Positions 2,634 through 61,643 of a DNA stretch of 64,000 bases are shown piece after piece (position 1 is the first letter of the stretch; every line of letters starts with the position of its first letter). The notes beneath the pieces are model-generated. The model made no database searches and was not told where the DNA came from. It saw only the letters and a program-made list of their open reading frames with translations. This DNA comes from a virus: IMG/VR virus record IMGVR_UViG_3300045988_175656; one strand, 5' to 3'. The position numbers were made by a program, and so were the translations under genes.

Positions 2634-3552
2634 ATAATTCATTATGATTTGTAAATACCTTAGATATATATAAATTATTACTTTTATCTGAGTGAGTATA
2701 GTATAGAATTTTTATATTATTGTGCTTACATAAATCATATTTTAACTTATTATTTTTAGATAATTTAATAAAATTTTGTAAACCACCAAAATAATTAATT
2801 GGTTTGAAATGCTGTTCACCCTGACATTCAATCGCAATATTATAATCAGGAAGATAAAAGTCTAATCTTAATTTATATTTTGATTTAAGCCAATCAAATG
2901 TTTTCTCTCGTTCATAATTAATATTGTTTATTTCTAAAAAATTAGATATTTCATTTTCTAATTTTGATTCATTACAAATAGGGCATCCTTTACTTTGTAA
3001 GTGATTGTGTGGCGTTTGCCAAAACTCACCATGTTCAGGACAAACAATACAAACTTTTGTGCAATTGTTTACATAATTTACTTTTGAATAATCGTATTTA
3101 TTGCCATGTATTTCTTTTGCTTTAGTAATAAATTTTTCATTTGTTAATTTGTTATTATCATTTCTATGCTTATTGGCACAAATGGGACATCCTTGCTTTT
3201 GATGGATATGTTTATATAGTGATTGCTGAAATTCACCATGTTCAGGACATATAATTGTTGATTTGGTATCAATATTTAAATAATGAAATTTTGAATAATC
3301 ATATTTATCACCATGTATTTGAATTGCATATTCAACCCATTCATTAATAGTTTTATATAAACCACGACATTTGGGGCAACCATGTTTTCGATTAATATGT
3401 TTAACAGGTGTTTGCCAAAACTCACCATGTTCAGGGCAAATAATACAAACTTTTGTTTTATTGTTTATATATTCTACTTTTGAATAATCATATTTGTTAC
3501 CATGAACTTCCATAGCTCTCTTTATAAAATTCTCAGTTGTGTTTTGTTTCAT
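2617..3552 (-). CDS. putative homing endonuclease: 3 zinc-ribbon repeats + Vsr/DUF559-like PD-(D/E)xK core (paralog 1 of 3)
   Basis: Three roughly 60-aa repeats (HGNKYDYSKV.Y.N..TKVCIICPEHGEFWQTP..H...GCP.C) are followed by LRLDFYLPDYNIAIECQGEQHF. It is one of only two convincing minus-strand genes, which suggests an inserted selfish gene. Confidence 0.7.
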   Translation of the reverse strand: MKQNTTENFIKRAMEVHGNKYDYSKVEYINNKTKVCIICPEHGEFWQTPVKHINRKHGCPKCRGLYKTINEWVEYAIQIHGDKYDYSKFHYLNIDTKSTIICPEHGEFQQSLYKHIHQKQGCPICANKHRNDNNKLTNEKFITKAKEIHGNKYDYSKVNYVNNCTKVCIVCPEHGEFWQTPHNHLQSKGCPICNESKLENEISNFLEINNINYEREKTFDWLKSKYKLRLDFYLPDYNIAIECQGEQHFKPINYFGGLQNFIKLSKNNKLKYDLCKHNNIKILYYTHSDKSNNLYISKVFTNHNELLNEII

Positions 3553-7098: not shown

Positions 7099-7162
7099 AA
7101 TAATTATTATATAATGTGAACAATATGACTGATTGTGGCGCATTTTAACAGTTAAAAAATAT

Positions 7163-7196
7163 AAAGTCTGTAATCCGATTACAGACTTTTTTGTTT
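7163..7196 (+). terminator. rho-independent terminator
   Basis: Stem AAAGTCTGTAAT/ATTACAGACTTT, loop CCG, then TTTTTTG. Confidence 0.75.
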
Positions 7197-7213
7197 TATT
7201 GGATTTAAAGTCG

Positions 7214-7221
7214 TATATTTG
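7214..7221 (+). promoter_or_regulatory. Bacteroidota-type -7 promoter box
   Basis: TCGTATATTTGCATAA lies 22 nt upstream of the ATG at 7244. Confidence 0.55.
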
Positions 7222-7243
7222 CATAAACATAAATAATTTTAAT

Positions 7244-7567
7244 ATGACTATATTTTTAATTCTCATAGGATGTGTTTTAGTATTTGCTCTTTTTGCTAGA
7301 TGGATATTTTTAGAAATATTTAAGAAAAATATTGATATAACTAGAAAACTAAGAGTTGTTTCTATTTCTGAAAGTAATACTATTAATGGAGAAAAATATT
7401 ATAAAATAAAATGCAAAGCGTGTGAAACTAGTAATGAATATCTTAATTTAGAAATTGATTTTGGTAAAACAATTACAATTAATTTATTTGATATAGGGGA
7501 AGTGAATGTGGGTGATGAAATTGTGTTTGAAAAATTTATAAATAAAGAATTAAAATGGGATAAATAA
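7244..7567 (+). CDS. small membrane-anchored protein
   Basis: The start is moved from 7133 to MTIFLILIGCVLVFALF.. because the track N-terminus runs through the terminator and promoter. Confidence 0.55.
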   Translation: MTIFLILIGCVLVFALFARWIFLEIFKKNIDITRKLRVVSISESNTINGEKYYKIKCKACETSNEYLNLEIDFGKTITINLFDIGEVNVGDEIVFEKFINKELKWDK

Positions 7568-8445
7568 TGTTAAATATAAAAGAAATTTTAGAGTTTAGAA
7601 AAACTAATCCAGAACCTAAAGAAGTTACTAAAATTAGGGAGAAAATACTATCAACTTTTAATAAGTTGCAATTTGTTGAAGAAACACACCAATATTTTCT
7701 TCCTGATACAAAAGGTAATCTTATAGAATATGACTGTGTAAGTAATGTAACACATAAATTTGTACCACATGAGAATTGGGATTTAATTGCTGAGAATTAT
7801 GCAATTAAGCATAACAAGCCAAAAGAATTAGTACAAGAAGAGTGGCATTATAATAATATAAGAGCAACCAATAGTGGTACTGGAGTACATTTGTATGGAG
7901 AAATGTGGATGGAACTATTTTTAGGTCATCCAGACAATATTTGTGATATAATTAAACCACAATACCAAGATGGATATTTATTGCCACATTCGCCAAAAGA
8001 AGAAGCCGTAGCAAAGTTTAATGAGGACTTATTTAGAACGCCTAACATGTACCCTGTTTTAGCTGAAACAAGAGTTTATACAGGTGTTAATAAAAAGGTG
8101 AAAAAATTAAATAATAACTATGCAGGCACATTTGATATTTTATATTATTTTAAACACCCAACAGATAATGAAAAAAGTGGTTTATTAATATTGGATTATA
8201 AAACAAATAATGATTTATATAGTAAATTTAATATTGATAATAATAAAATGCTATTAGAACCATTTACCAACATGGTAAATCAAAATTTATCATTATATAC
8301 CCTTCAATTATCATGTTATCAAATACCACTTGAAGATATTGGGATGAAAGTATTAGGTAGAAGAATAATTTGGGTTAAGCCTGATGGAAGTTATGAAAAA
8401 ATTCCTGTACCTGATGTAACTAATGTATTAAGAAATGTATTGTAA
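7567..8445 (+). CDS. RecB-family PD-(D/E)xK exonuclease
   Basis: Motifs seen: GTGVHLYGE, AGTFDILYY, LLILDYKTN (D-x-K), and YTLQLSCYQ (QxxxY). Confidence 0.6.
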   Translation: MLNIKEILEFRKTNPEPKEVTKIREKILSTFNKLQFVEETHQYFLPDTKGNLIEYDCVSNVTHKFVPHENWDLIAENYAIKHNKPKELVQEEWHYNNIRATNSGTGVHLYGEMWMELFLGHPDNICDIIKPQYQDGYLLPHSPKEEAVAKFNEDLFRTPNMYPVLAETRVYTGVNKKVKKLNNNYAGTFDILYYFKHPTDNEKSGLLILDYKTNNDLYSKFNIDNNKMLLEPFTNMVNQNLSLYTLQLSCYQIPLEDIGMKVLGRRIIWVKPDGSYEKIPVPDVTNVLRNVL

Positions 8446-8447
8446 TT

Positions 8448-8612
8448 ATGACAAGAGAAGAAATTGAAAAAGATATAGAATGGGAGTTTGGTAATTCTTG
8501 TGGCATCTGGTACCCATTTAGAAATATAATAGACAATTATACTGATGAAGATATATATGATGTTATGATTCAATGGACTAAAAAACATGGTGCTAAGTTT
8601 GATGATGAATAA
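8448..8612 (+). CDS. small hypothetical protein (54 aa, below track cutoff)
   Basis: ATG lies 2 nt after the upstream stop (MTREEIEKDIEWEFGNSCGIWYPF..KHGAKFDDE*). It fills the gap up to the terminator cassette. Confidence 0.45.
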   Translation: MTREEIEKDIEWEFGNSCGIWYPFRNIIDNYTDEDIYDVMIQWTKKHGAKFDDE

Positions 8613-8624
8613 TTAACCATATTT

Positions 8625-8667
8625 AACGAGATTTCTTTTGGAATCTCGTTTTTTATTTGTACATTTG
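8625..8667 (+). promoter_or_regulatory. terminator hairpin fused to promoter (cassette copy 1 of 6)
   Basis: AACGAGATT-tcttttgg-AATCTCGTT, then a T-run, then TACATTTG. The loop TTTG lies about 20 nt upstream of the -7 box. Confidence 0.65.
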
Positions 8668-8692
8668 TACCAAAATAAAAAACCATAGAATT

Positions 8693-9091
8693 ATGAGACG
8701 AGAACATTATCTTCCAAAACAGCCTAAATATGGCAATAAACAGTGTGAAACTTTCTCCCATATAGATATAAATGGAGAAAAAGTTATGAAAAATAAACAA
8801 AAATATGATACTGATAAGGAAGCAATTGAAGAAGCAAGAAAATTAAATTGTTTGCCTGAAACAATTCATAAAGTAGTTGCATATAAGTGTATAACCTGTG
8901 GAAAGTGGCACATTGGTAGAACTACTAAAGTTTTAACTGAAAAAGAAAAAGAACATTATAGAAGTCTTGGGACACCTTTTAATTTTAAAAAAGTCATATA
9001 TAAAACTGATATATCAGAGGGTAAGTTTAAACGTATAATTCCAAGTGCTGAACAGGAACTTATTATTAAAAGAAATTTAGGTCTATTATGA
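8693..9091 (+). CDS. hypothetical protein with CxxC motif
   Basis: The start is moved to MRREHYLPK because the track start at 8657 lies inside the promoter box. It contains KCITCGKWHIGR. Confidence 0.55.
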   Translation: MRREHYLPKQPKYGNKQCETFSHIDINGEKVMKNKQKYDTDKEAIEEARKLNCLPETIHKVVAYKCITCGKWHIGRTTKVLTEKEKEHYRSLGTPFNFKKVIYKTDISEGKFKRIIPSAEQELIIKRNLGLL

Positions 9092-9390
9092 GTGAATCAA
9101 AAAAAGTACAAAATATGAGGGCTGATTTTATAAACTTCATAAAATCAGTTGTGTTCATGAAAGGAAAATTAAATATATGTGGTGAACAAGAGATAAATTT
9201 TGATAATTTATCAAATGTAATTTCTTTGGATTATTTTGATATTAATGGTGCAAGTCATTCAAGTTATATTGAAAGTGTTTTATTATGTAATGATAAATTA
9301 GTTTTCAATACCAAAAATGGTGATGCATTAACACCATCTGATTTAGAAATGGAAGTTTTGGAGAACATTGTAGACATTTTAAAAGAATAG
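9088..9390 (+). CDS. hypothetical protein
   Basis: 100-aa ORF with an ATGA overlap with the upstream gene. Confidence 0.55.
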   Translation: MSESKKVQNMRADFINFIKSVVFMKGKLNICGEQEINFDNLSNVISLDYFDINGASHSSYIESVLLCNDKLVFNTKNGDALTPSDLEMEVLENIVDILKE

Positions 9391-9396
9391 TTAAAT

Positions 9397-9951
9397 ATGA
9401 AGTTAAAAAAACAATATATTAGAATACTCCAAAAAGCATTCAGAGTATGGAGTAATAAATTAGATGATTATGACTTGCATTATGCAATGGATGAAATTTA
9501 TTATGCTAAAAGTCCAGCAGCCGCTATTCAAAAGTTTTTATCTTCTGAATATGGATATGATTCATCATTTAATGATTGTAAAACACAACGTGTTCCAAGT
9601 GATGATAAAATTGAATATAATGATGGTGTGATATGTAAAACAGGGTTTAGAAGTTGTATTGAAGATTATATGGAAGAACTTGAACGTATGGATATAATTC
9701 GTAAACTTCCTGATGATACAATGTTTTACATACAAGATAGAAGAAACTATGTTGGCAATTCAGTTCTTTGGTGGGGTTTAAATAGTGGTGGTTATGTTAC
9801 AAACCCAAAGAAAGCAATGAAAGTATCAAAAGAATATATTTTAAAACATACATGGAGAAAAACTGATATTATATGGGAAGCGACTGAAGTAGAAAATAAT
9901 ATTACATCACATGTTGATGCTCAATATCTTAATAAAAAGAAAAGTTTTTAA
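9397..9951 (+). CDS. hypothetical protein
   Basis: 184-aa ORF in the gene train with no recognised motif. Confidence 0.55.
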   Translation: MKLKKQYIRILQKAFRVWSNKLDDYDLHYAMDEIYYAKSPAAAIQKFLSSEYGYDSSFNDCKTQRVPSDDKIEYNDGVICKTGFRSCIEDYMEELERMDIIRKLPDDTMFYIQDRRNYVGNSVLWWGLNSGGYVTNPKKAMKVSKEYILKHTWRKTDIIWEATEVENNITSHVDAQYLNKKKSF

Positions 9952-9952
9952 T

Positions 9953-10429
9953 ATGAAAAAAGGTGATAAAGTATTAATTAAAGAATGTCCTATTAAAAAA
10001 TATGTAGGAAAAGAAGGAGTTATTACAAATGTAATTTGTAAATGGAATTGTGAAAAATTATATAAAGTAACAATTGGTAATACAACAATTAAAAATTGGG
10101 CAACAGATGATTGCCTTGAATTAATTGTTGAAAAGAAAACAATAGCAGAATTGTATGATACCGAAACTGAAGATATTAAACGTTTTTGTGACCATGTTAA
10201 TAAGCAGAAAAACGAATATAAAGTAAATGAAGAGTGTTATCATTGTAAATACAAATATAACATTCCAGGAAATGCTCATGTTGGGTGTCGTAAATATTGT
10301 GAAGGAAACACATTTGCATCTTATGGCATTGCAAATGGATGGGTTATTAATATTCCAACATTAGGAATTTCTTGTTTTGACCCAATTTGGAAAGATACAA
10401 AGTGTCCACATTTTGAAGAAAAAGAATAA
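9953..10429 (+). CDS. hypothetical Cys-rich protein
   Basis: The start MKKGDKVLIKE lies immediately after the upstream stop (the track start at 9911 overlaps). The C-terminal half is rich in Cys and His. Confidence 0.55.
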   Translation: MKKGDKVLIKECPIKKYVGKEGVITNVICKWNCEKLYKVTIGNTTIKNWATDDCLELIVEKKTIAELYDTETEDIKRFCDHVNKQKNEYKVNEECYHCKYKYNIPGNAHVGCRKYCEGNTFASYGIANGWVINIPTLGISCFDPIWKDTKCPHFEEKE

Positions 10430-10430
10430 T

Positions 10431-10766
10431 ATGAAAAAAGTTGATATTAATAGAATTTTAACAGATGTTTTATTTGTTGTTTTTAACAATGAAGGTAGTA
10501 ACTCTCCTGAAGATATTACTGATTATGTAGATTCAGAAACAATTCTTGATTATATGTTAGAAGATAATGATTATTTTTTAAGTAATTTTTTAACATATCT
10601 TGAAAGTGCATATATGAATGGTAAATATCCATGTAATGATGGTGATAAATGTTATTATAATGTGTTATTTGTAATGATACGAAATCCTCATTATAAAGAA
10701 AAATGCCAAGACTTCATGAATCGTTATGGGTTTGATTTAGATATAATTAATAGAGATTTTTTGTAA
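10431..10766 (+). CDS. hypothetical protein
   Basis: The start MKKVDINRIL lies right after the upstream stop (the track start at 10377 overlaps). Confidence 0.5.
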   Translation: MKKVDINRILTDVLFVVFNNEGSNSPEDITDYVDSETILDYMLEDNDYFLSNFLTYLESAYMNGKYPCNDGDKCYYNVLFVMIRNPHYKEKCQDFMNRYGFDLDIINRDFL

Positions 10767-10767
10767 T

Positions 10768-11337
10768 ATGCTTAAATTATCTGATATTAGAAAGCCATTA
10801 AAAATTGATGTTCAATCACCTTGTGTTATAACAAGACTTGGGAGGATTGAAAACAGATATGACATTGATTGGGATATTATATTAAGCAATGGGAAACCAT
10901 TACAAAGAGATTTTTGTTGGTCACATGAACAAAAATCTGAATTGATATTATCAGTTCTTAAAAATATTCCAATACCACCTTTTAGTTTTATAATTGGCGG
11001 TAAAGATGACAAAACATTAAGAGTTATTGATGGTAAACAAAGATTATCAACTTTAATTGATTTTTATAAAGGGGTAATTTCATTTCATTATGAAGGGAAA
11101 AATTATTTTTATAAAGATTTAGATAAATCTGCACAATTTGAATTTGAATATTTTGATATTATGGCTTCAGTGGCTTATGAGCCTTTCGTTGAAGATACAC
11201 AATTAAGAAAAACAGAAAAATGTGTACCATTTAATGATGAAGATATTATTGAATGGTTTAAATTAATCAATTTTGCAGGAACACCTCAAAATAAAGAGCA
11301 TTTAAATTATTTAAATAGTATTATTAAAAATAGTTAA
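10768..11337 (+). CDS. DUF262/ParB-like nuclease-domain protein
   Basis: LRVIDGKQRLSTLIDFYKG matches the DGQQR(L/I)T(T/S)L core of DUF262 (the N-terminal domain of GmrSD). There is no DUF1524/HNH half. Confidence 0.55.
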   Translation: MLKLSDIRKPLKIDVQSPCVITRLGRIENRYDIDWDIILSNGKPLQRDFCWSHEQKSELILSVLKNIPIPPFSFIIGGKDDKTLRVIDGKQRLSTLIDFYKGVISFHYEGKNYFYKDLDKSAQFEFEYFDIMASVAYEPFVEDTQLRKTEKCVPFNDEDIIEWFKLINFAGTPQNKEHLNYLNSIIKNS

Positions 11338-11375
11338 ACTTTATATTAATATTTGGTAGTATGAAAATTTTGCCA

Positions 11376-11383
11376 TATATTTG
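11376..11383 (+). promoter_or_regulatory. Bacteroidota-type -7 promoter box
   Basis: CCATATATTTGCAC lies 33 nt upstream of the pncB ATG. Confidence 0.5.
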
Positions 11384-11416
11384 CACTATAAATTAATAAC
11401 AATAATAAAAAATAAC

Positions 11417-12637
11417 ATGGGACAAATAATTAACAGTATTCTTGACACAGATTTATATTCATTTAGTATTCAGTATCTTTATTTACAAAAATTTCCTCGT
11501 GCAAAAGGAACTTTTAAATTTAAAGATAGAAGTAACACAGTTTATCCAGAAGGGTTTGCTGAAAAAGTAATGTCTGAAGTTAGAAAGATGGATAATCTTC
11601 AGCTTCAAGATGATGAAGCTGAATGGATGGAAAATAAGTTGTATTATTTTCCTAAATGGTATATTACAACCTTTTTAAAAGGTTATCGCTTTAATTCTAA
11701 AGAAGTTAGTTTGCGGCAAGATGAAGAAGGGCATTTACATGGGGAGATAAAAGGATATTTGTGGAGAACCCTTTTTTGGGAAGAACCAATTTTGGCAATT
11801 GTATCAGAACTTTATCATAAAGAAATAGGAGAAGTAGCTGATTTACAAGAAGTGGCTGAAATTACACGAAGAAAATTTGAAAAATTCCAATTACATGGCA
11901 TTACATTTTCTGATTTTGGAACACGTAGACGTTTTTCATTTGCTGTACAAGAAACTGTTGTGAAAGTATTTGATGACTTATCAAAACTATATGCTCGTGG
12001 GACATCTAAAGATAGAATCTGTTTCAAAGGCACATCAAATACATATTTGGCATTTAAATATGATTTGACACCTATTGGCACAATGGCACATCAAATTGTA
12101 TCAGCAATTGGCGCACTGTTTGGTTATAAAGAAGCTAATTATTTAGCAATGGAAAATTGGTTTGATGTTTATAATGCAGACCTTGGAATTTTTCTTTATG
12201 ACACTTATGGATGGGATGCATTTGAAAAGAACTTTGCCAAAAAACATGCACTTCTCTATGATGGATTACGAGTTGATTCAGGTGATAATATTGACCAATT
12301 AGAAAAAATTATTGCCAAATATATATCTCTTGGAATTGACCCATCAACTAAAAGTGTTGTATTTTCAAATGCACTAACAACTGATGATGCAGTCCAAATT
12401 CATTTAAAAGTACGTGGGCGTATTAAAGATAGTTATGGAATTGGTACACATTTCACTTGTGATATTCCAGGTGTTAAACCGTTGAATATTGTCATTAAAT
12501 TAGATGAAGTATCTATTACTGAAAAAACCGAAACTAAAAAAGCAGTAAAACTATCTAATGATTTTGGAAAATATACTGGAGATGCTGATGAAGTACAAAT
12601 AGCATTACTAACTTTAGGTATAAAAAATAAAGAATAA
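11417..12637 (+). CDS. pncB: nicotinate phosphoribosyltransferase
   Basis: Collinear with E. coli PncB as I remember it: ILDTDLYSFS, LQLQDDEAEWM, FSDFGTRRRFSFAVQETVV, GTSN, LTPIGTMAHQ, LRVDSGD, LGIDPSTKSVVFSN, SYGIGTHFTCDIPGVKPLNIVIKL. The start is moved to MGQIINS, downstream of the promoter box. Confidence 0.93.
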   Translation: MGQIINSILDTDLYSFSIQYLYLQKFPRAKGTFKFKDRSNTVYPEGFAEKVMSEVRKMDNLQLQDDEAEWMENKLYYFPKWYITTFLKGYRFNSKEVSLRQDEEGHLHGEIKGYLWRTLFWEEPILAIVSELYHKEIGEVADLQEVAEITRRKFEKFQLHGITFSDFGTRRRFSFAVQETVVKVFDDLSKLYARGTSKDRICFKGTSNTYLAFKYDLTPIGTMAHQIVSAIGALFGYKEANYLAMENWFDVYNADLGIFLYDTYGWDAFEKNFAKKHALLYDGLRVDSGDNIDQLEKIIAKYISLGIDPSTKSVVFSNALTTDDAVQIHLKVRGRIKDSYGIGTHFTCDIPGVKPLNIVIKLDEVSITEKTETKKAVKLSNDFGKYTGDADEVQIALLTLGIKNKE

Positions 12638-12918
12638 TGGGTGTTATGGATGCAGTACTAATAACATTATTTATAATAACATGGATTGTATGTATAGTTA
12701 TTGTAAATATATTTATATATGAGTCTTATAAAGAAGAACATAATGGAATAACAACAGGTCAAACTATTGTAATGAACACTATTGGAATACTGCCACTTTT
12801 TAATCAATTGTATGTAATATATTGGTTAATAATGAAAGCATATCGTAATAGAAAAATAATTCTTAAAGGTTTTTCATTGACAAATATTTTTAATTCATTT
12901 AAAGTATTAAAATTATAA
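12637..12918 (+). CDS. small membrane protein
   Basis: TAATG overlap with pncB and two hydrophobic helices. Confidence 0.5.
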   Translation: MGVMDAVLITLFIITWIVCIVIVNIFIYESYKEEHNGITTGQTIVMNTIGILPLFNQLYVIYWLIMKAYRNRKIILKGFSLTNIFNSFKVLKL

Positions 12919-12921
12919 TTC

Positions 12922-13395
12922 ATGGGCATATTAGTATTTTTTTGGTTACTTGCTATTGCAATACTTTTGTTTCTTGTAATAAATATTATTAATTTTCTAT
13001 ACACTAAAAATATTAAATACAGAGAATTAAAAAGAAGATACAGAGAATATGTAAATTATATTAAAGCAAATCAATATATTTTTGAAACAGCAATCAAAAC
13101 TTTTGATGAAATCAAAGATGATAAATTTGAGGAAATGTTATCTGATGAATCAGTTGTTTTTGGTATAAGAACTAAAGATGGAAAATTAGCTTGTTTTAAT
13201 TCTAATAATTTAATGAATGTGAAATTTGGGACTTATGTATTTCATATACCTTATATTAAAGAATATAGAAATACAATAAAAAAGTTACAATTTCATATTA
13301 ATCATATTTCTCTTAGCAGAAAATTTAATGCTGATAAAGAAACAATTGATAAAGCACATAAAATTAAAGACGATATATTAAAAAATAACTTATAA
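12922..13395 (+). CDS. membrane-anchored hypothetical protein
   Basis: N-terminal TM helix followed by a charged soluble part. Confidence 0.55.
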   Translation: MGILVFFWLLAIAILLFLVINIINFLYTKNIKYRELKRRYREYVNYIKANQYIFETAIKTFDEIKDDKFEEMLSDESVVFGIRTKDGKLACFNSNNLMNVKFGTYVFHIPYIKEYRNTIKKLQFHINHISLSRKFNADKETIDKAHKIKDDILKNNL

Positions 13396-13399
13396 TTAA

Positions 13400-13834
13400 A
13401 TGAACGAATTAAAATACAATAATGAAGAAAGACTTACTAATTTTAAAGAACATTTTGGCAAATTAGTAAATAATTGTAAAGCATTTGATTATATGCTAAA
13501 TGAATTACTGCAATTAGAAGATAAGAGATTAGTATATATCATCATCAATAAATTTTGGTTTATTGAACGACAAAGATGCCACTATTGGAACAATTTACCA
13601 AAAAATGTAAAAAGTTATTATAGACCATATTTTATAAAAAATATGAGAAATGTAATGATAACTACATTAAGTAAATGTGGTTCTATTGATATAACTGCTC
13701 ATATGATAACTGAAGAGGGAAAACCTGTATGGGCTGATGAATCTGAAACTGCATATCAATTTAATAAATCAAGATGTCATGGTTTTGTTTTAAATGTTCT
13801 CTCTACTTATTTTAAAATAAGATGTAAAGTATGA
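13400..13834 (+). CDS. hypothetical protein
   Basis: 144-aa ORF in the gene train. Confidence 0.55.
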   Translation: MNELKYNNEERLTNFKEHFGKLVNNCKAFDYMLNELLQLEDKRLVYIIINKFWFIERQRCHYWNNLPKNVKSYYRPYFIKNMRNVMITTLSKCGSIDITAHMITEEGKPVWADESETAYQFNKSRCHGFVLNVLSTYFKIRCKV

Positions 13835-14115
13835 AACGAATTTATATAGATTATACCCATATTGGTGGTAATAGTTATCAAATTGGTTTAATGGATGAAC
13901 ATAATTTATCAACTATTTATTTTATGACAGTTATATGGTCAGATGATAATAGTCCACAAATTATAATTCCTTCAACAAAATTGTTACATAAACAATGTTA
14001 TGATGAAATTAGTAGTATATTATATTCAATAAATTCTGACCAAGAAGAAATTTCAAAAAAGAAACTATCTGATATACTGTTGACCAATGGATATACAAAA
14101 AATCCACTAAATTAA
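13831..14115 (+). CDS. hypothetical protein
   Basis: ATGA overlap with the upstream gene. It is followed by a terminator cassette. Confidence 0.55.
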   Translation: MKRIYIDYTHIGGNSYQIGLMDEHNLSTIYFMTVIWSDDNSPQIIIPSTKLLHKQCYDEISSILYSINSDQEEISKKKLSDILLTNGYTKNPLN

Positions 14116-14123
14116 TCAATTTT

Positions 14124-14166
14124 AACGAGAATTCTTTTGGATTCTCGTTTTTTGTTTGTATATTTG
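14124..14166 (+). promoter_or_regulatory. terminator hairpin fused to promoter (cassette copy 2 of 6)
   Basis: AACGAGAAT-tcttttgg-ATTCTCGTT, then TTTT, then GTTTGTATATTTGCA. Confidence 0.7.
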
Positions 14167-14203
14167 CATCATAAAATTAGAAAACAACAAAAAATAATAT
14201 TGT

Positions 14204-14407
14204 ATGAAAGTAGAAATTATTGACCATATTTCTGGTAATCAAGAGATTGAAACTAAAAGTAGTGGCATTCTTGTTTATGACAAAGATGGAAATGAATATC
14301 ATATAAAAGAGAGTCAATGGGGTGGATTGGAAGTTTATTCTACAAATGATAAATTATCAATTGAACCATGTTATAGTAATTTAATTTATTTAAAGACAAG
14401 AAAATGA
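14204..14407 (+). CDS. hypothetical protein
   Basis: 67-aa ORF downstream of the cassette promoter. Confidence 0.5.
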   Translation: MKVEIIDHISGNQEIETKSSGILVYDKDGNEYHIKESQWGGLEVYSTNDKLSIEPCYSNLIYLKTRK

Positions 14408-14661
14408 AACTGAGAACACAGAAAAATTTTAATACCAGAACTCATGAAACAGTTTATGGTGTAAGTATTATGGTGGATGGTAGCCGTATGTATTGTAAAT
14501 ATCCAATTGGTTATCAAGAGTTTAAAACAAATAAAGATGCTAAAGAAGCATTGGAAAAAATAAAAAACATATTAGATAATGGTGGAACAATACAATATGC
14601 TCCATCAGGAAGTGCTGGATTAAACAAATCTGAATATGTTTTAATTAAAAACAAAGAATAA
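14404..14661 (+). CDS. hypothetical protein
   Basis: ATGA overlap with the upstream gene; 85 aa. Confidence 0.5.
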   Translation: MKLRTQKNFNTRTHETVYGVSIMVDGSRMYCKYPIGYQEFKTNKDAKEALEKIKNILDNGGTIQYAPSGSAGLNKSEYVLIKNKE

Positions 14662-14882
14662 TGAAATATCTGGTAATTCTAATAACTTTTATTTTAATGA
14701 GTTCTTTTTATATAGTAAATGATGTAGAAGAATTTCATATTAGAATGGAAGGTAAAAAGAATGTAGAAATTTTTAAGAAAAAACACCCAAAAATAGTAAG
14801 GGATAGAGCCGTTTATATTGCCTATTTACAAAAATATTATAATGGCAATGAAAATGAGTTTATATCACTTTTAAAACATTAA
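14661..14882 (+). CDS. small membrane-anchored protein
   Basis: TAATG overlap with the upstream gene and an N-terminal TM helix. Confidence 0.5.
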   Translation: MKYLVILITFILMSSFYIVNDVEEFHIRMEGKKNVEIFKKKHPKIVRDRAVYIAYLQKYYNGNENEFISLLKH

Positions 14883-14884
14883 TT

Positions 14885-15154
14885 ATGAAAAAAATTTTGG
14901 TAGGAATTTTTTGTATAACATTATTATTATCATGTACAACTGCAAGGATTCATAGAATGGGTAAACAGTATGTAACAATATATCATATTTTCCCATCTCC
15001 TGATAAAATAGGCTTAGATTATGCTCGTGTATATTTGGTTAATGACACTCTTTGCACAAGACCATATTTCATATATGTACCAAGTAGATTTAATTATGAG
15101 GTAGGAAATACGCTATTGTATAATTTTGAATATTATGATTTTTTAACAAAATAA
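14885..15154 (+). CDS. putative lipoprotein
   Basis: Signal peptide with a lipobox-like LLLSC (MKKILVGIFCITLLLSCTT). Confidence 0.5.
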   Translation: MKKILVGIFCITLLLSCTTARIHRMGKQYVTIYHIFPSPDKIGLDYARVYLVNDTLCTRPYFIYVPSRFNYEVGNTLLYNFEYYDFLTK

Positions 15155-15179
15155 ACTTGTGCTTTTATAAATAAAATAC

Positions 15180-15187
15180 TATATTTG
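15180..15187 (+). promoter_or_regulatory. Bacteroidota-type -7 promoter box
   Basis: ACTATATTTGCATC lies 23 nt upstream of the ATG at 15211. Confidence 0.5.
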
Positions 15188-15210
15188 CATCATTAAAATA
15201 ATAATAAAAA

Positions 15211-16239
15211 ATGGAACAGCACGAAAAATTAATTAAAATTACGCCAAGTTGTTGGCATTATCGTCTTATTAAATACATTTGGAATATTGACCCAAAGATG
15301 TTTATAAATCTTTGCCCATATTTCTGGTTAACAATTGCATCTTTATTTGCATTGCCATTTGTTTGGCTATATAAAGTAATTAAAAATGGTATCACTACAT
15401 TTTTTGATAAAATAGGTGAATATATAGATAAAGTTTTTGATAAAGAATTAGAAAAGTGGGTTAAAACGTTAAATGAAGCTCAAATTATTGAGATTGATAA
15501 ATTTGGTTGGAATTCTGATGATGTTAATGTGCCTTTTTCTTTCAAACAAAAAGCTTCATCATGGGATGCTGTGCATAAATGGTGTAAGTTACATAATATG
15601 TCAACTTCTGACCTTTACAAAAAAGTAGGTCTTTATGAAGAGTTTAAAGAAAAAATGCGTATTAAGAAAGCCGAAAAAAGAAAAAGGGAAGAAGAAAAAG
15701 AATTGCGTAAACAACTCGCTAATAATAAACGCAATATTGATAGAGCTAAAATGAATAAGGTTATTAAAAATACAAAACAGATAGCTGGTTTTCTTATAAC
15801 ACTTCTTTTAGCATTCATATTTTTCTATATTGTTAAATTATTCGTGTTTATTTTCACTATATTTGTTGAGTTTGTAATGCTTAATTCAACTGAATGTGGA
15901 TGTGCTCTTGGCTTTATAGCTCTTAGTTTATTAATTGGATTTATTATATGGTTATATTGTTGTAGAGTTAGTCCAATTGTTGATAGAATTACAGATTGTC
16001 AGTCTGCAAGTGTTAAAGAATGGATTGTAGCATTTCCAGCATTAATCTTTATTGGTTCTTGTTATGTAATATTTTATTGTATTATATATACTTTCTTGTG
16101 GAAATGGATTATATATGCAACTTATGTAGGACTTAGAAATGCGTTTTTTACATTTACAGGTATATTTGGTGAATATTTTGGCGCATCATATTCAGATTAT
16201 TGCCCTGGAATTGAATGGGATGAAAAAGATGAAGATTAA
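15211..16239 (+). CDS. multi-pass membrane protein with central Lys/Glu-rich coiled coil
   Basis: 342-aa ORF. It has TM helices near residue 40 and in the C-terminal third, with KAEKRKREEEKELRKQL in the middle. Confidence 0.6.
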   Translation: MEQHEKLIKITPSCWHYRLIKYIWNIDPKMFINLCPYFWLTIASLFALPFVWLYKVIKNGITTFFDKIGEYIDKVFDKELEKWVKTLNEAQIIEIDKFGWNSDDVNVPFSFKQKASSWDAVHKWCKLHNMSTSDLYKKVGLYEEFKEKMRIKKAEKRKREEEKELRKQLANNKRNIDRAKMNKVIKNTKQIAGFLITLLLAFIFFYIVKLFVFIFTIFVEFVMLNSTECGCALGFIALSLLIGFIIWLYCCRVSPIVDRITDCQSASVKEWIVAFPALIFIGSCYVIFYCIIYTFLWKWIIYATYVGLRNAFFTFTGIFGEYFGASYSDYCPGIEWDEKDED

Positions 16240-16256
16240 CATTAAAAAATAAAAAT

Positions 16257-16754
16257 ATGTACACTTATATTTTAGTAGTAATTTTATTGTTTATAATTGC
16301 ATCTTGTATTAAAACTTCTTTTCCTAAAAAATTTGTTTTAATTGGATGTGCATTAATTAGTTTGGTGGTTTGTGTAGTCATTAATTGTGTTTATTATGGC
16401 GTTAATTATGACACGATGGAAACAGTTAAAAACACTAAAGTTAAAATTGTTTCAGATGAAGAATTAGAAATGAAGATTAAAAATGATTCTATCATTAGAG
16501 TCGAAACTAAAACTTCAATATATAATATCGCCATTAATGGTACTGAAGGAGAGGTTGTTAAATTAGACACTGTTAATAGAGTAATAACAATTAAAGATGA
16601 ATTTGTTGATAATAATCAATGGATGATGATTTCAAGTTATCCAACTAAACATTCAATCACTATTATTGGACTAAAAAAAGATAAATATGATGTATTTAAG
16701 ACTTATCAAGATTCTATTTGCAAAAGAAAAGATACATTATCAAAGAATGGGTAG
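16257..16754 (+). CDS. membrane-anchored hypothetical protein
   Basis: Two N-terminal TM helices; 165 aa. Confidence 0.55.
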   Translation: MYTYILVVILLFIIASCIKTSFPKKFVLIGCALISLVVCVVINCVYYGVNYDTMETVKNTKVKIVSDEELEMKIKNDSIIRVETKTSIYNIAINGTEGEVVKLDTVNRVITIKDEFVDNNQWMMISSYPTKHSITIIGLKKDKYDVFKTYQDSICKRKDTLSKNG

Positions 16755-16953
16755 TCTTTTTCTTGAACTTGAAAATATAGGTGGTAAATTAATTGCATAT
16801 CCAATTATATTCTGTTTAATAACGTTTTTCCATTATTGTTTCGCATTTATGCATACCTCATTTGAAACTTTTATGTTTTTCTATAATAAAGATAGATTTG
16901 CATTAAATGTGGCTAATATGGAAAAGCGTTTAAATAAAAAATACCATGATTGA
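16747..16953 (+). CDS. small membrane protein
   Basis: The internal ATG (MGSLFLELEN..) overlaps the upstream stop by 8 nt. The track start at 16687 would overlap by 68 nt. Confidence 0.4.
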   Translation: MGSLFLELENIGGKLIAYPIIFCLITFFHYCFAFMHTSFETFMFFYNKDRFALNVANMEKRLNKKYHD

Positions 16954-17182
16954 TTTAATCAAAAGATACTTTAAACAATATTTGTCTTTAAAATATCGAA
17001 TAGTTACAGACCGTTTTGCTGGTTATGAATGTCAAGTAACTTTATTTGGTCTTTTTTGGTACGAAATGGGTGGTACTAATACACAATTCAGTATTGAGAG
17101 GTCATTAGATTACATATATAGAAATACAGGAAAACGTTTTAAATTCTTAAAATTAAAAGAAAAATTATATGAACAATGTTAA
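16946..17182 (+). CDS. hypothetical protein
   Basis: 78-aa ORF with an 8-nt overlap upstream. Confidence 0.45.
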   Translation: MIDLIKRYFKQYLSLKYRIVTDRFAGYECQVTLFGLFWYEMGGTNTQFSIERSLDYIYRNTGKRFKFLKLKEKLYEQC

Positions 17183-18212
17183 TGAACATACACTAAATAA
17201 CTTGAAAAAACGGTTTGTTAGCGATTATAGCTTACCAATTATAATTTTTGAAGAACCTGATTTTGAATATTTTCTTAATTTATATGAAGAACAGTTTGGT
17301 GCTAAAACTAAATGGGATAAATTGATAAATGTTATTGACGAAAAATTCAATGGTAATCCTAATTTATTTCTGGAAGAGTTTGCAAGGGTAAGAAACAACA
17401 TGATTGAGAGCATACTCAATAATAAATATTATCAAGAATTTAACGAAAATCAATGTGTTCTTTCCAAATATAATTTACCTAAATTGAATTACCCAAAATC
17501 CAATGTATATAAAGAAACTAATAATGGAAGATATTTCTTATCAGTTGATTTAAAAAAAGCTAACTTCTCAGCATTAATGTATCATGATAGTTGGATATTA
17601 GGAGAAGAAACTATAATTCCTTATGAAGATTGGGTTAAGAAATTCACTGATTTAGAGTATATTATAGAATCAAAATATACTCGCCAAGTTGTTTTTGGTA
17701 AATTAAACCCTTCAAGGCAAATTAAAGTAGAAAACTATATGATTTATCAAGCACTTCAAAAATATTTAACATTATTTGAATGTTTAAATATTAATGTTGA
17801 AGTAGCGAGTTTTTGTACTGATGAAGTTGTATTTGATGTAACAGATAACTTTAAATATATTCTTGATAATATGTCTGCAATTAAACATTTGCAGAAATGT
17901 TTAAAAGATGATGACAAAATCAATGTTGATGTTGAGTTTTATCGTTTGAGTTTACAAAAATTCAAAACTTATAAAGATGCTGAAATACCTGTTTATATGA
18001 AAACTTATCTTGATAATAAAGAAAGAGGTAAATTTAGTGCTGTTGTATATGATTTATTTTCAGTACCATCTTTTTACTATGCACAAATATATAAACTTAT
18101 TCATGGTATGAGAGTTACTGAAACTGATATGAAATTTTATATGGAAGGTCAAATTGCTAGATTTTATCATCCATTAATTTATGTAAATTCAATTTTAAAT
18201 TATGATAAGTAG
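17169..18212 (+). CDS. hypothetical protein, possibly a palm-domain nucleotidyltransferase
   Basis: 347-aa ORF. FLSVDLKKANFSAL, YTRQVVFGKLNP and SFCTDEVVFDV loosely resemble polymerase motifs A, B and C. The function call is very tentative. Confidence 0.55.
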   Translation: MNNVNEHTLNNLKKRFVSDYSLPIIIFEEPDFEYFLNLYEEQFGAKTKWDKLINVIDEKFNGNPNLFLEEFARVRNNMIESILNNKYYQEFNENQCVLSKYNLPKLNYPKSNVYKETNNGRYFLSVDLKKANFSALMYHDSWILGEETIIPYEDWVKKFTDLEYIIESKYTRQVVFGKLNPSRQIKVENYMIYQALQKYLTLFECLNINVEVASFCTDEVVFDVTDNFKYILDNMSAIKHLQKCLKDDDKINVDVEFYRLSLQKFKTYKDAEIPVYMKTYLDNKERGKFSAVVYDLFSVPSFYYAQIYKLIHGMRVTETDMKFYMEGQIARFYHPLIYVNSILNYDK

Positions 18213-18606
18213 AATATTAATAAAGAAAATCAAGAAACATGGATTTGGTAAAAAAGATTCTTTTACTATTATTGATGTTGCTCCAAAAGAGTATTATAAG
18301 TTAGTCAAAATAGACAAATTATATTTTGCCAAAATTATTCTTGGTTTCAGGAAAATTCTAGAGAATATTAAGCCACATGATAACATAGTTGAAACAATGC
18401 CTGATGGCACTTTATGCAAAACTATGGTAGGAAATGAGTTTGTCCTTTCTTTAAGTGAGTTAATTAAAATAGCAGACTCTTTGTATTTCCCACTTAAAAT
18501 TTATGAAGAAAATTTTAAATATTATAATATTCTACATAAAATAATACAAACAGTTCAAAAACATGGCTATCATAATAGAGTAATATTTGTGTTGGAAAAG
18601 AATTAA
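18202..18606 (+). CDS. hypothetical protein
   Basis: 134-aa ORF whose stop lies inside the palindromic terminator. Confidence 0.55.
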   Translation: MISRILIKKIKKHGFGKKDSFTIIDVAPKEYYKLVKIDKLYFAKIILGFRKILENIKPHDNIVETMPDGTLCKTMVGNEFVLSLSELIKIADSLYFPLKIYEENFKYYNILHKIIQTVQKHGYHNRVIFVLEKN

Positions 18607-18630
18607 TGGGATTAGCTAATCCCATTAATT
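18601..18630. terminator. bidirectional terminator between convergent genes
   Basis: AATTAATGGGATTA-GC-TAATCCCATTAATT, with 14-nt perfect inverted arms. Confidence 0.6.
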
Positions 18631-19086
18631 TTACATACAAATAGCACTATGAGAAGTGGAATATAAAAAGTTAGTTAATAATTTCCCCAAAGATTCATAT
18701 TTTTCATCTTTAGGTTTCAACATTAAAAATGTTGAAGGTGAATAACAATCAAAACAAGAATATTCTTGTTCCACTTTTATCATCCATGCAGGTTTTTCAA
18801 TTTCACCTGTTAATACTTGGTCAATTATAATTGAAACATAATTAATTTTGTCACTTGTTGGAGTCATATTGGAAATTAATATATCAGGAACATCAATATT
18901 ATCAGTATTGTAAGTTTCCCAATCAAAATTTGCATATGTTATATAAGCACAGAATATACCAAAATAAAAAATATCATCGGCTCTTAAAGGATTAGATGAT
19001 AAATCAAACATTTCATCAATTAAATTTTTAACTGATGATAAAGTACCACTTGAATAAGTGAAAATCATTACACGATTCATAATCAA
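18631..19086 (-). CDS. hypothetical protein (second of only two minus-strand genes)
   Basis: 151-aa ORF that does not overlap any + strand ORF. It is bounded by the palindrome on one side and a divergent intergenic region on the other. Confidence 0.55.
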   Translation of the reverse strand: MIMNRVMIFTYSSGTLSSVKNLIDEMFDLSSNPLRADDIFYFGIFCAYITYANFDWETYNTDNIDVPDILISNMTPTSDKINYVSIIIDQVLTGEIEKPAWMIKVEQEYSCFDCYSPSTFLMLKPKDEKYESLGKLLTNFLYSTSHSAICM

Positions 19087-19125
19087 CTATTTTTATGTAT
19101 AAATAGCTTTAATAATGTTTATAAA

Positions 19126-20502: not shown

Positions 20503-20545
20503 TGTATTTTAACCATATTAATTTTGCACTTTAAATTATAATGGT

Positions 20546-20553
20546 TACATTTG
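20546..20553 (+). promoter_or_regulatory. Bacteroidota-type -7 promoter box
   Basis: GGTTACATTTGCATAA lies 22 nt upstream of the ATG at 20576. Confidence 0.5.
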
Positions 20554-20575
20554 CATAAATAAAAATAAAGACAGT

Positions 20576-22269: not shown

Positions 22270-22273
22270 AATT

Positions 22274-24030: not shown

Positions 24031-24038
24031 TATATTTG
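24031..24038 (+). promoter_or_regulatory. Bacteroidota-type -7 promoter box
   Basis: TTTGTATATTTGCATTG lies 27 nt upstream of the pncA ATG. Confidence 0.55.
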
Positions 24039-24065
24039 CATTGTTAAATTTTAAAACATATAAAA

Positions 24066-24851
24066 ATGAAGAAAAGAGCAATTTTAGGTATTGACCTACA
24101 AAACGATTTCGTTTTAATTAATGGTGCTTTGAGTGTGAATGGTGCAGAAGAAGATGCAAAACGTATTGGTGCATTTATTTCTAATAATAAGAAAGATATT
24201 CATCACATTTCTCTAACACTTGATTCACATCACCCTTTGCACATTGCAAACCCTATCTATTGGAAAGATAAAGATGGCAATCATCCTTCACCTTTCACAG
24301 TGATTACTTACCAAGACATTAAAGATGGTAAATGGACTACATCTATTAACCCACAATGGTCTTTCCGTTATGTAGAAGAGTTGGAAAAACAAGGAAGCCA
24401 ACTAACAATTTGGAATGAACACTGCCTCCTTGGTACTGATGGATGGGCAATTGTTACTCCTGTTATCAAAGCATGTATTGAATGGGAAGAAACTAATTGT
24501 AAGCCTTATAATTTGTGGTTTAAAGGAAGTAATTGGTTTACTGAACATTATAGCATTTTTAAAGCTGCTGTAACATATCCTGGTGCTCCTGAGACTGATT
24601 TGAATCAACAATTAATTCAGGTATTGAATGAATATGATGAAGTTTATATTTGTGGAGAAGCAATGAATTATTGTTGTTTGAATAGTATTAAAGATTTGAA
24701 TACATATGCTCCAGATTTAATGAAAAAAGTATTAATTCTTGAAGATTGTATGTCTCCTATTGGCACTTTTGACATCAATACAGACCCAGTTTATCAAGAA
24801 GCTGTTCGTTTAGGGGCAAAAATTATAAAATCAACTGATGTTTTGTTTTAA
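24066..24851 (+). CDS. pncA: nicotinamidase / isochorismatase-family hydrolase
   Basis: ILGIDLQNDF (catalytic Asp) and YICGEAMNYCCLNS (nucleophile Cys in a GxAxxxC context). The genome also encodes pncB and nadD. Confidence 0.7.
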   Translation: MKKRAILGIDLQNDFVLINGALSVNGAEEDAKRIGAFISNNKKDIHHISLTLDSHHPLHIANPIYWKDKDGNHPSPFTVITYQDIKDGKWTTSINPQWSFRYVEELEKQGSQLTIWNEHCLLGTDGWAIVTPVIKACIEWEETNCKPYNLWFKGSNWFTEHYSIFKAAVTYPGAPETDLNQQLIQVLNEYDEVYICGEAMNYCCLNSIKDLNTYAPDLMKKVLILEDCMSPIGTFDINTDPVYQEAVRLGAKIIKSTDVLF

Positions 24852-26617: not shown

Positions 26618-26659
26618 AAAACCATTTGTCTGTGAAGATAGATGGTTTTTATTTTTTTT
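26618..26659 (+). terminator. rho-independent terminator
   Basis: A 13-bp stem (AAAACCATTTGTC/GATAGATGGTTTT, with 2 G-U pairs) followed by a long T-run. Confidence 0.65.
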
Positions 26660-49785: not shown

Positions 49786-49828
49786 AACGAGAATCTTTTT
49801 AGGTTCTCGTTTTTTATTCGTATATTTG
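49786..49828 (+). promoter_or_regulatory. terminator hairpin fused to promoter (cassette copy 5 of 6)
   Basis: AACGAGAATCT-tttt-AGGTTCTCGTT, then TTTT, then ATTCGTATATTTGCA. Confidence 0.7.
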
Positions 49829-49848
49829 CAATATTAATTAATATAATC

Positions 49849-50957: not shown

Positions 50958-51560
50958 ATGAAAAAAATAGGCTTATTTTTTGGAACATTTAATCCAATCC
51001 ATAATGGTCACTTAATGATGGCTAATTATATTGTTAATAATACCGATATTTCAACAGTATTATTTGTTGTTAATCCAACTGCGCCATTTAAAAAGAAAGA
51101 TAACCTTCTTAGTTTTGAAGATAGAGTGGATATGGTTGATTTAGCAATTGCTAATGTTAAACATATTAGGTCTACTAAGATGGAAAATGATTTGCCATTA
51201 CCAGCATATACATATAATACTTTTAGACATTGTGTTAAAACATATGGAGAAAACTTTGAATTTGTATTAATTCTTGGATGTGATAATTTAGATAAATTAT
51301 CACGATGGAAAAACGCTGCTGAAATTATTGAAAATCATGAAATATATGTTTGCCCAAGAAACGGAATTGATTATAATAAAGAAATTGCCAAGATTAAGAG
51401 TAATTTCAAAGTTAAAGCAATTTATGTTGTTACAGATGTTCCAGAGTGTAATCTAAGTTCTACATTTATTAGAAAACAAATAAAAGAAGGTAAAAATATA
51501 GAATTTTATGTACCAACTGATGTAAGAAAATATATAGAAAATAAAAAATTTTATTTGTGA
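50958..51560 (+). CDS. nadD: nicotinate/nicotinamide mononucleotide adenylyltransferase
   Basis: GLFFGTFNPIHNGHLMMA (the GxFxPxHxGH motif) and NLSSTFIRKQIKEG (the ISST.IR motif). Confidence 0.85.
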   Translation: MKKIGLFFGTFNPIHNGHLMMANYIVNNTDISTVLFVVNPTAPFKKKDNLLSFEDRVDMVDLAIANVKHIRSTKMENDLPLPAYTYNTFRHCVKTYGENFEFVLILGCDNLDKLSRWKNAAEIIENHEIYVCPRNGIDYNKEIAKIKSNFKVKAIYVVTDVPECNLSSTFIRKQIKEGKNIEFYVPTDVRKYIENKKFYL

Positions 51561-52006: not shown

Positions 52007-52049
52007 AATATAAATTAACGAGAATTCTTTGGGATTCTCGTTTTTTGTT
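52007..52049 (+). promoter_or_regulatory. terminator hairpin fused to promoter (cassette copy 6 of 6)
   Basis: AACGAGAAT-tctttggg-ATTCTCGTT, then TTTT, then GTTTATATATTTGCA. Confidence 0.7.
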
Positions 52050-52086
52050 TATATATTTGCATTATTAATTAATAACGAATAAAAAT

Positions 52087-61115: not shown

Positions 61116-61643
61116 ATGGGACATAGTACGATTATAACTAGAGGAAAAGAATTGGCTTTTCTTCTTCGTCATGATAAAGAATATAAATTTGATAAACATG
61201 GATGGAGAGAAGTTTCAGACCTTATTAAAAATCATCACTATACAATGGATGAACTTAATGAAATTGTTGAAACGAATGATAAAAAACGTTATGAGTTTTC
61301 TGATGATAAAAAGAAGATTCGTGCAAGACAAGGGCATTCAATTGCTGTTGATGTGGAATTGAAAGAAACAACCCCACCTGATGTTCTTTATCATGGAACT
61401 GCTACTCGTTTTATTAGTTCAATTAATAAGCATGGTATTTTAAAAGGTACAAGACAACATGTACATCTTTCTGAAACAATAAGTATTGCAAAAAATGTTG
61501 GAAAGAGACATGGAAACCCTTGTGTTTTTGAAATTGATTCTAAACAAATGTTTGATGATGGTTGCAAATTTTATTTATCAAATAATGGAGTATGGCTTAC
61601 CGATTTCGTGGATAAAAAATATTTTTTAAAATGTATATTTTAA
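61116..61643 (+). CDS. kptA: RNA 2'-phosphotransferase Tpt1/KptA
   Basis: LAFLLRHD, KKRYEF, IRARQGHS, LYHGT and TRQHVHLS are the canonical Tpt1 motifs, and they appear in order. Confidence 0.88.
   Translation: MGHSTIITRGKELAFLLRHDKEYKFDKHGWREVSDLIKNHHYTMDELNEIVETNDKKRYEFSDDKKKIRARQGHSIAVDVELKETTPPDVLYHGTATRFISSINKHGILKGTRQHVHLSETISIAKNVGKRHGNPCVFEIDSKQMFDDGCKFYLSNNGVWLTDFVDKKYFLKCIF

Follow-up and report, generated by a model that had tools for sequence, protein, structure and literature searches.

Several phage-encoded routes that restore nicotinamide adenine dinucleotide (NAD+) have been described. Osterman et al. 2024 defined two NAD+ reconstitution pathways: NARP1 (Adps plus Namat), in which ADP-ribose is reused via ADP-ribose pyrophosphate (ADPR-PP), and NARP2, which consists of Nampt plus Nmnat; PncA, PncB and NadD are not mentioned in that work. 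NARP3 (PnuC plus NadR) imports nicotinamide riboside (Sci Adv 2026, PMC13464706), and Iyer et al. 2022 deal with NadV, NadM and NadR only. A survey of gut jumbo phages found a complete salvage or Preiss-Handler pathway in 174 of 668 genomes; Kuafu_71, with its pncB-nadD-nadE cluster, is an example of these "NAD-jumbo phages", and a counter-defence role for their genes has already been proposed (Li et al. 2024, Microbiome 12:268, PMC11662467). Here we analyzed a stretch of 64,000 nucleotides of viral DNA (IMG/VR record IMGVR_UViG_3300045988_175656, hereafter the window) that carries pncB together with genes for a long-form, PncA-type nicotinamidase and for NadD. With a NadE gene found in close relatives of this phage, the lineage encodes the predicted enzymes of a full route from nicotinamide through nicotinate, nicotinate mononucleotide (NaMN) and nicotinate adenine dinucleotide (NaAD) to NAD+.

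NARP2 and the NadV/NatV system of phage KVP40 resemble this gene set in that they are phage-encoded, start from nicotinamide, use chemistry that depends on phosphoribosyl pyrophosphate (PRPP) and end in NAD+. However, NARP2 is a two-step amidated route through nicotinamide mononucleotide (NMN) and uses NAMPT, whereas the present set would follow a deamidated route of four steps, with nicotinate, NaMN and NaAD as intermediates, and uses a nicotinate phosphoribosyltransferase (NAPRTase) and a NadD-type adenylyltransferase. No NAMPT/NadV gene was found in the window or its 10-kb flanks, where the sole phosphoribosyltransferase of the superfamily is the NAPRTase equivalog. NARP1 and NARP3 likewise restore NAD+ from phage genes but with different gene sets: no Pfam assignment to a PRPS-like ADPR-PP synthetase or to Namat was made in the window and 10 kb on either side or in ~21 kb around nadE, and neither PnuC nor a NadR-like kinase/adenylyltransferase was found in ~84 kb around the window or in the same ~21 kb. 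The bacterial PncA-PncB-NadD-NadE salvage pathway, as in E. coli, has the same four enzyme families and the catalytic residues are conserved; the version described here differs in being viral, in the long form of its PncA and in its single-domain NadE.

The NAD-jumbo phages share with the window's lineage a genome of more than 200 kb, the gut habitat, a predicted Bacteroidota host and the combination of PncB, NadD and NadE. The source contig, at 390,089 bp, lies within the size limit of their definition (>200 kb), and would also carry the one whole NAD+ pathway that the definition asks for at least, given pncB and nadD in the window and nadE in close relatives. Three features set the lineage apart: its genes are dispersed over ~87 kb and not clustered as in Kuafu_71, it adds a divergent long-form PncA that extends the route back to nicotinamide, and it belongs to a human-gut, Jug-like clade (see below). 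A preliminary description of the window had presented the deamidated route as a third way of rebuilding NAD+. Its gene assignments and its biochemical route stand, but the idea is not new: Preiss-Handler counter-defence was published in 2024 by Li et al., and the third named pathway is NARP3. What is new here is the NadE of the lineage, a better-supported divergent PncA and a well-documented example.

PncB scored above the cut-offs of two curated families, with 398.6 bits against NCBIfam NF003704 (cut-off 379) and 363.7 bits against TIGR01514 (cut-off 269.55); in the latter alignment, residues 4–402 cover model positions 1–397 of 399. Pfam recognized the domains NAPRTase_N and NAPRTase, and the closest solved structure by PDB sequence comparison was the Porphyromonas gingivalis NAPRTase 2im5 (E=2.4e-105). 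Residues 3–366 also align with residues 7–363 of the enterobacterial-type PncB 3os4. These alignments, to TIGR01514 and to 3os4, confirm that the gene product is collinear with E. coli PncB, as first proposed. The protein contains the motifs FGTRRR (at 167), GTMAH (at 221), DSGD (at 287) and GIGT (at 341), and His225 within GTMAH aligns with the conserved His of the GT.AH motif. On the source contig, too, pncB is called with its start at 11417. An alternative TTG start at 11381 is overlapped by the upstream promoter box, which favors the ATG as the true start.

PncB matched no PHROGs family, and the PHROGs matches of NadD and of the PncA-like open reading frame (ORF) were weak. The nearest named cellular homologues of PncB, from Desulfovibrio and other Deltaproteobacteria, are 52–57% identical, and the GC content of the genes is 31–33% versus 26% for the window. 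We considered a recent capture of pncB from a host and rejected it: with cellular homologues no closer than this and a GC content close to that of the window, there is no sign of recent transfer.

NadD scored 160.2 bits against TIGR00482 (cut-off 112.45). Its closest solved structure is the B. subtilis NadD 1kam (E=4e-25), with which it aligns end to end, and it carries motifs of the HxGH and ISSTxxR types (HNGH at 15–18 and SSTFIR at 167–172). The proposed NadD-type adenylyltransferase is thus borne out.

The case for the nicotinamidase combines several kinds of evidence. The top match of the PncA-like ORF in a PDB sequence search was yeast Pnc1 (E=2.7e-9). In an alignment of 30 homologues (43–87% identity), the catalytic residues D10/K153/C203 and the metal ligands D53/H55/H119 were invariant, and His59 was nearly so. 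Nicotinamidases are distinguished from other isochorismatase-like hydrolases by this metal site. We modeled the protein with AlphaFold2 (predicted local distance difference test, pLDDT, 97.2; predicted template modeling score, pTM, 0.92) and compared the model with the PDB using Foldseek. The top 16 matches were all nicotinamidases, with sources that included yeast, Acinetobacter, Pyrococcus, Drosophila, Leishmania, M. tuberculosis, B. subtilis and S. pneumoniae. Bacterial genes for the long form also keep telling company: of 80 loci, 16 have pncB immediately after the gene in the same orientation and 15 have nadE no more than 3 kb away, so that pncB and/or nadE accompany it in at least 24 of the 80, a minimum since short contigs are frequent. 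Dysgonomonas, Sphingobacterium and Burkholderiales also have the long form. The ORF is best called a long-form PncA, a predicted nicotinamidase, by its triad, metal site, modeled fold and bacterial gene neighborhood. The nicotinamidase-like gene of the preliminary description is supported by this evidence despite profile scores below the cut-offs (given below). All three ORFs of that description, for PncA, PncB and NadD, lie at its coordinates, on the + strand.

No NadE gene was found in the window or its 10-kb flanks. We scanned IMG/VR with the NadE sequences of related huge phages and obtained matches on contig 3300045988_175545, at ~22.6 kb, and on contig 3300045988_179933. The protein has 287 aa, an SGGLDS motif at 33–38 and a score of 100.8 bits against TIGR00552 (cut-off 63.65). 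It consists of a single domain and lacks a glutaminase domain, so it is probably of the ammonia-dependent type. Contig 3300045988_175545 (379,916 bp) shares ~94% nucleotide identity with positions 7122–22623 of the window. It carries PncB at 69.5 kb (99% amino acid identity), PncA at 81.7 kb (84%) and NadD at 109.7 kb (77%), in the order and spacing of the window, which places NadE ~35 kb before the window start. All four genes also occur together on 3300045988_179933 (232,397 bp). The NadE sequence cluster P0121 (99% identity; 136 sequences from 177 contigs) includes many contigs of 376–393 kb, at least one of them labeled as human gut metagenome. The preliminary description had expected NadE to be encoded elsewhere or supplied by the host and had suggested a search for nadE; the search found it on contigs of close relatives that also carry pncB, pncA and nadD. 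We strongly infer that the exact source contig encodes the full route as well.

The identity of the shared proteins is mosaic. Across the relatives compared (IMG/VR 3300045988_175545, _179933 and _176087), PncB is steady at 98–99%, while PncA is 100% or 84% identical depending on the relative and the identity of NadD varies between contigs (94%, 77% or 72%). This pattern points to recombination among co-circulating strains.

Similar gene combinations recur in other phages. In a collection of 50,697 phage records, PncB occurs in 13, long-form PncA in 4, NadD in 27 and NadE in 39; the PncB and long-form PncA records are mostly huge metagenomic phages. MT835470, from human faeces, has a tight pncB-nadE-AAA-nadD-Nudix cluster. 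In LR756501.1 (735 kb), pncB, a 170-aa ORF and nadE are adjacent (424818–433465) and followed by a TonB-dependent receptor gene, and nadD lies elsewhere in the genome; Li et al. 2024 credit LR756501 with nadD only (PMC11662467). In LR756500 (462 kb, 23.5% GC), which also carries pncB, 3 kb separate nadE from pncA. Sinorhizobium phage Phosso carries pncB and nadE, and Bacillus phage G carries nadD and nadE. Long-form PncA was also found on 55 IMG/VR contigs, many of them larger than 200 kb. The recurrence of such combinations in unrelated large phages argues that their co-occurrence is not a chance assembly of genes.

In this type of salvage, PncA converts nicotinamide to nicotinate, PncB joins nicotinate and PRPP to NaMN, NadD forms NaAD from NaMN and ATP, and NadE converts NaAD to NAD+. 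The phage set would work in the same sequence: the PncA-type nicotinamidase would hydrolyze nicotinamide, PncB would couple the resulting nicotinate to PRPP, NadD would adenylylate NaMN at the expense of ATP, and the single-domain NadE would amidate NaAD. Through recycling of nicotinamide and nicotinate, the set would most likely uphold the NAD+ pool of the infected cell. Possible sources of the nicotinamide are NADase effectors of host defence and the phage's own enzymes that use NAD+, such as Tpt1. We consider it probable that these genes form a functional deamidated route that replenishes the pool in cells infected by a Jug-like Bacteroidota phage. This reading is built on the identity of the genes, their catalytic residues, the completeness of the pathway in the lineage, its conservation and the fact that it recurs in jumbo phages that are unrelated.

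Several points weigh against it. The activity and expression of these proteins are predicted from their sequences, and substrate preference, timing of expression and selective benefit are likewise read from them; the choice of NadD between NaMN and NMN, in particular, is unreadable from its sequence. The PncA-like ORF scored 19.9 bits against the Pfam Isochorismatase family (cut-off 27) and 30 bits against PRK11609 (cut-off 174), with just its first 56 residues matching the latter, and with such scores another pyridine-amide substrate is possible. NadE is known from relatives of ~94% nucleotide identity and would be present on the source contig by extension. The four genes lie 12–47 kb apart and are transcribed separately. 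NadD and NadE are probably encoded by the host as well, which makes any added value of the phage copies hypothetical. The distances between the genes, their different transcription units, the sub-threshold scores of the PncA-like protein and the mosaic identities could also mean that there is no pathway at all: the genes would then be independently acquired morons, at least one of which acts on another substrate (a different amide, or host NMN in the case of NadD). We regard this as improbable, because four consecutive steps are all present, with order and spacing preserved among related genomes, the metal site specific to nicotinamidases does not vary, bacterial homologues of the long-form PncA directly precede pncB and often nadE, and other phages have this combination in tight clusters. 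A salvage route thus remains our preferred reading.

Where does the window come from? The exact PncB sequence lies on the European Nucleotide Archive (ENA) contig ERZ27260180:k119_25861, with the window start near position 129,454. Other window proteins were found on 375–391-kb contigs from other samples, and the relatives overall span 375–394 kb. The window has a GC content of 26.2%, a coding density of 91% under code 11 and genes nearly all on the + strand. Stop-codon recoding of the Lak type, considered on account of the low GC content, was rejected: stop-codon usage is normal (TAA 79, TGA 21, TAG 11), the coding density is reached under code 11, and the Jug phages described below reportedly use the standard code. 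No tRNA genes and no Rfam families were found in the window. A megablast search of 20 kb against the 50,697 phage records gave no match, so that collection holds no close sequenced relative.

The Jug (jumbo gut) phages offer a likely home. They have genomes of 360–402 kb and 27–30% GC, use the standard code, live in the human gut and infect Bacteroides/Phocaeicola (Chen et al., Sci Adv 2026, PMC12880540); NAD and nicotinamide are not mentioned in the main text of either version of that paper. The window's phage is like them in its 390 kb, its human-gut origin, its low GC content and its standard code. Membership is drawn here from size, habitat and composition, and not from sequence identity. 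We infer that the window is part of a ~390-kb Jug-like jumbo phage of human-gut Bacteroidota. That the contig is instead cellular or mis-assembled would agree with the failure to find a virion hallmark gene in the window or its 10-kb flanks, but is very improbable: near-identical 375–394-kb contigs were assembled independently in many human-gut samples, IMG/VR files the close relatives as viral, the densely coding window is almost entirely one-stranded and made up mostly of ORFans, some genes having PHROG matches, and size, habitat and GC agree with the published Jug phages (PMC12880540). The length of the source contig and the IMG/VR viral contigs among its close relatives also justify the original label of a phage.

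The arrangement of promoters bears on both host and regulation. The Bacteroides primary-sigma -7 consensus is TAnnTTTG (PMC7366714). The decamer TANNTTTGCA, which equals the Bacteroides sigma-AB -7 consensus followed by CA, occurs 28 times in the window versus 9.5 times expected, a count reached in none of 100 shuffles. Most copies (23/28) are on the + strand, mostly 17–51 nt upstream of start codons (for example at 3632, 5364, 15180, 26695, 30425, 31682, 43187 and 54158). This enrichment supports a Bacteroidota host, and transcription would be carried out by the host RNA polymerase. The decamer can help both to indicate the host and to map the transcription units. A scan for sigma-70-type promoters was uninformative (24, 34 and 25 sites versus 30.5, 26.4 and 29.1 expected).

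Boxes of this type (TATATTTGCA) precede pncB and pncA (Table 1), each of which is predicted to lead a unit driven by a promoter of the host type (TAnnTTTG). The pncB unit comprises pncB and small ORFs up to ~14100. By contrast, nadD starts 13 nt past the preceding ORF, lies in the interior of a ~2.2-kb unit between two cassettes and has no TANNTTTGCA box nearby. The claim that each gene has its own promoter context thus holds for pncB and pncA but not for nadD. The four genes are dispersed and form no operon. The window holds six copies of one conserved hairpin terminator (CGAGA-N-TCTCG, then a T-run), where none is expected by chance. At least five of the six are followed within ~10 nt by a TA..TTTGCA promoter box, and the combination resembles a "stop-then-restart" cassette employed repeatedly at the junctions of transcription units.

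Table 1. Positions of genes and regulatory elements in the window
Feature	Position	Strand	Remarks
pncB, nicotinate phosphoribosyltransferase	11417..12637	+	406 aa; NCBIfam, Pfam, PDB relatives, motifs
Long-form nicotinamidase (PncA-type)	24066..24851	+	261 aa; triad, metal site, predicted fold, bacterial gene neighborhood
nadD, nicotinate-mononucleotide adenylyltransferase	50958..51560	+	200 aa; TIGR00482, 1kam, motifs
TATATTTGCA promoter box (Bacteroides-type -7, TAnnTTTG)	11376..11385	+	31 nt before pncB ATG
TATATTTGCA promoter box	24031..24040	+	25 nt before pncA ATG
Terminator hairpin and T-run, then next promoter box	14124..14168	+	closes pncB unit
Terminator-like hairpin	26618..26649	+	closes unit of pncA and the DUF723/VWA gene (24941-26572)
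Terminator-plus-promoter cassette	49786..49830	+	opens nadD-containing unit
Terminator-plus-promoter cassette	52017..52061	+	closes nadD unit
Six terminator hairpin copies	8627-8654, 14126-14153, 35293-35320, 38736-38763, 49788-49815, 52019-52046		
Thg1-like guanylyltransferase	1722-2579		
RNA ligase	56218-56892		
Tpt1/KptA RNA 2'-phosphotransferase	61116..61643	+	PF01885 148.9 bits; NF002014 202 bits

Among the neighboring genes, Tpt1/KptA is context and stands outside the salvage pathway; Tpt1 consumes NAD+ and releases nicotinamide. The scattered RNA-repair-type genes, namely Thg1, RNA ligase, Tpt1/KptA and a kinase/phosphatase-like HD + AAA_33 protein encoded upstream of the window (related contig L005:5922-7127), may counter host RNA-cleaving defences. 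A NADAR-domain protein (TIGR02464, 162 bits) is encoded ~5 kb before the 5' end of the window (L005:4452-4928). In one strain variant a 470-aa reverse transcriptase (RVT_1) lies between the SSB region and pncB (L005:18539-19951). Directly upstream of pncB, positions 10768-11337 encode a 189-aa protein with the DUF262/GmrSD_N domain only (61.5 bits) and without the nuclease half; PADLOC scored it as NsnA-like (67 bits). On the neighboring genes, PADLOC gave domain-level matches only and no defence system.

Downstream of pncA lies one of three treble-clef zinc-finger (DUF723/DUF4379) paralogues with ~72–73% DNA identity: it is on the + strand and fused to a VWA domain, the second (62748-63863) is also on the + strand, and the third (2617-3552) is among the few minus-strand genes. 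A 552-aa protein at 31714-33372 matched PHROG 506 "transposase" (E=5.5e-32) and scored 40 bits against the TnpB model NF040570, a weak match under the cut-off of 100. Behind its gene lies an ORF-free stretch of 891 nt (33373-34263) that could hold a guide RNA; neither the protein nor the stretch had a Pfam, PDB-sequence or Rfam match. An HNH/homing-endonuclease-like ORF (55323-56216; PHROG 559, 3339) immediately precedes the RNA ligase gene and is absent at the same position in two related genomes (L003 and L004), which suggests a mobile insertion. Finally, ~1.7–4.7 kb past the 3' end of the window, the related genome L004 (12905-15942) encodes a cluster of HisG, a 363-aa Ham1/RdgB fusion, endonuclease V and SAICAR synthase. 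The HisG is a short-form ATP phosphoribosyltransferase (TIGR00070, 103.5 bits; cut-off 75.75), and a lone phage HisG is unusual.

What would the phage gain from the salvage route? One possibility is dedicated counter-defence: selection would have favored the set mainly for regenerating NAD+ from the nicotinamide that NADase abortive-infection systems (Thoeris, SIR2-HerA, DSR and similar) release in Bacteroides, in the manner of NARP2 but through the deamidated branch. All phage NAD+ pathways tested so far, NARP1, NARP2 and NARP3, counter NADase defences, and the PncA substrate is the exact product of such defences. The host-type promoters of pncA and pncB are such as early genes would have, and early expression would suit this role; the conflict-type neighbors (RNA ligase, Tpt1 and Thg1, plus the NADAR domain just upstream) fit as well, and the idea coincides with that of Li et al. 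2024 (PMC11662467). However, the literature searched contained neither experiments on a phage PncA or PncB, or on a route built from them, nor a "NARP4". By standard biochemistry, a route of four steps that costs PRPP plus ATP at several of them may not keep pace with a fast NADase. In addition, the genes are dispersed and nadD has no separate regulation.

The alternative is housekeeping auxiliary metabolism, in which the set would supplement the NAD+ of a large phage that replicates for long and has NAD+-consuming enzymes of its own, or would exploit gut nicotinamide and niacin, and any buffering against NADases is incidental. Phage-encoded NAD+ users such as Tpt1 agree with this, although reactions of the Tpt1 type use little NAD+ relative to the cellular pool by standard stoichiometry. 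Nucleotide-metabolism genes lie in the window and its flanks, with HisG, PurC and Ham1 downstream. The Jug phages are highly transcribed with their virion genes ranked relatively low, which suggests prolonged non-lytic residence (PMC12880540). On the other side, the auxiliary-metabolic-gene reading of phage NadV and NMN adenylyltransferase gave way to counter-defence once NARP2 was tested (Osterman et al. 2024). We rate counter-defence and general NAD+ supply as about equally likely, each a possibility to be held tentatively, and the sequence cannot decide between them.

A bolder version of the counter-defence reading is that the set is a genuine fourth NAD+ reconstitution pathway, the first to be deamidating and the first in Bacteroidota phages, which enables replication in NADase-armed hosts and has a previously unrecognised long-form nicotinamidase as its entry enzyme. 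This we find rather doubtful at present. If the enzymes are active, phages would restore NAD+ through the deamidated branch besides NARP1–3, and the counter-measures to NAD-depleting immunity would be wider. This capacity would be placed in an abundant human-gut clade, since Jug phages are reported to account for ~1.1% of human-gut metagenome reads (PMC12880540), and the clade could then also affect the conversion of nicotinamide to niacin in the gut.

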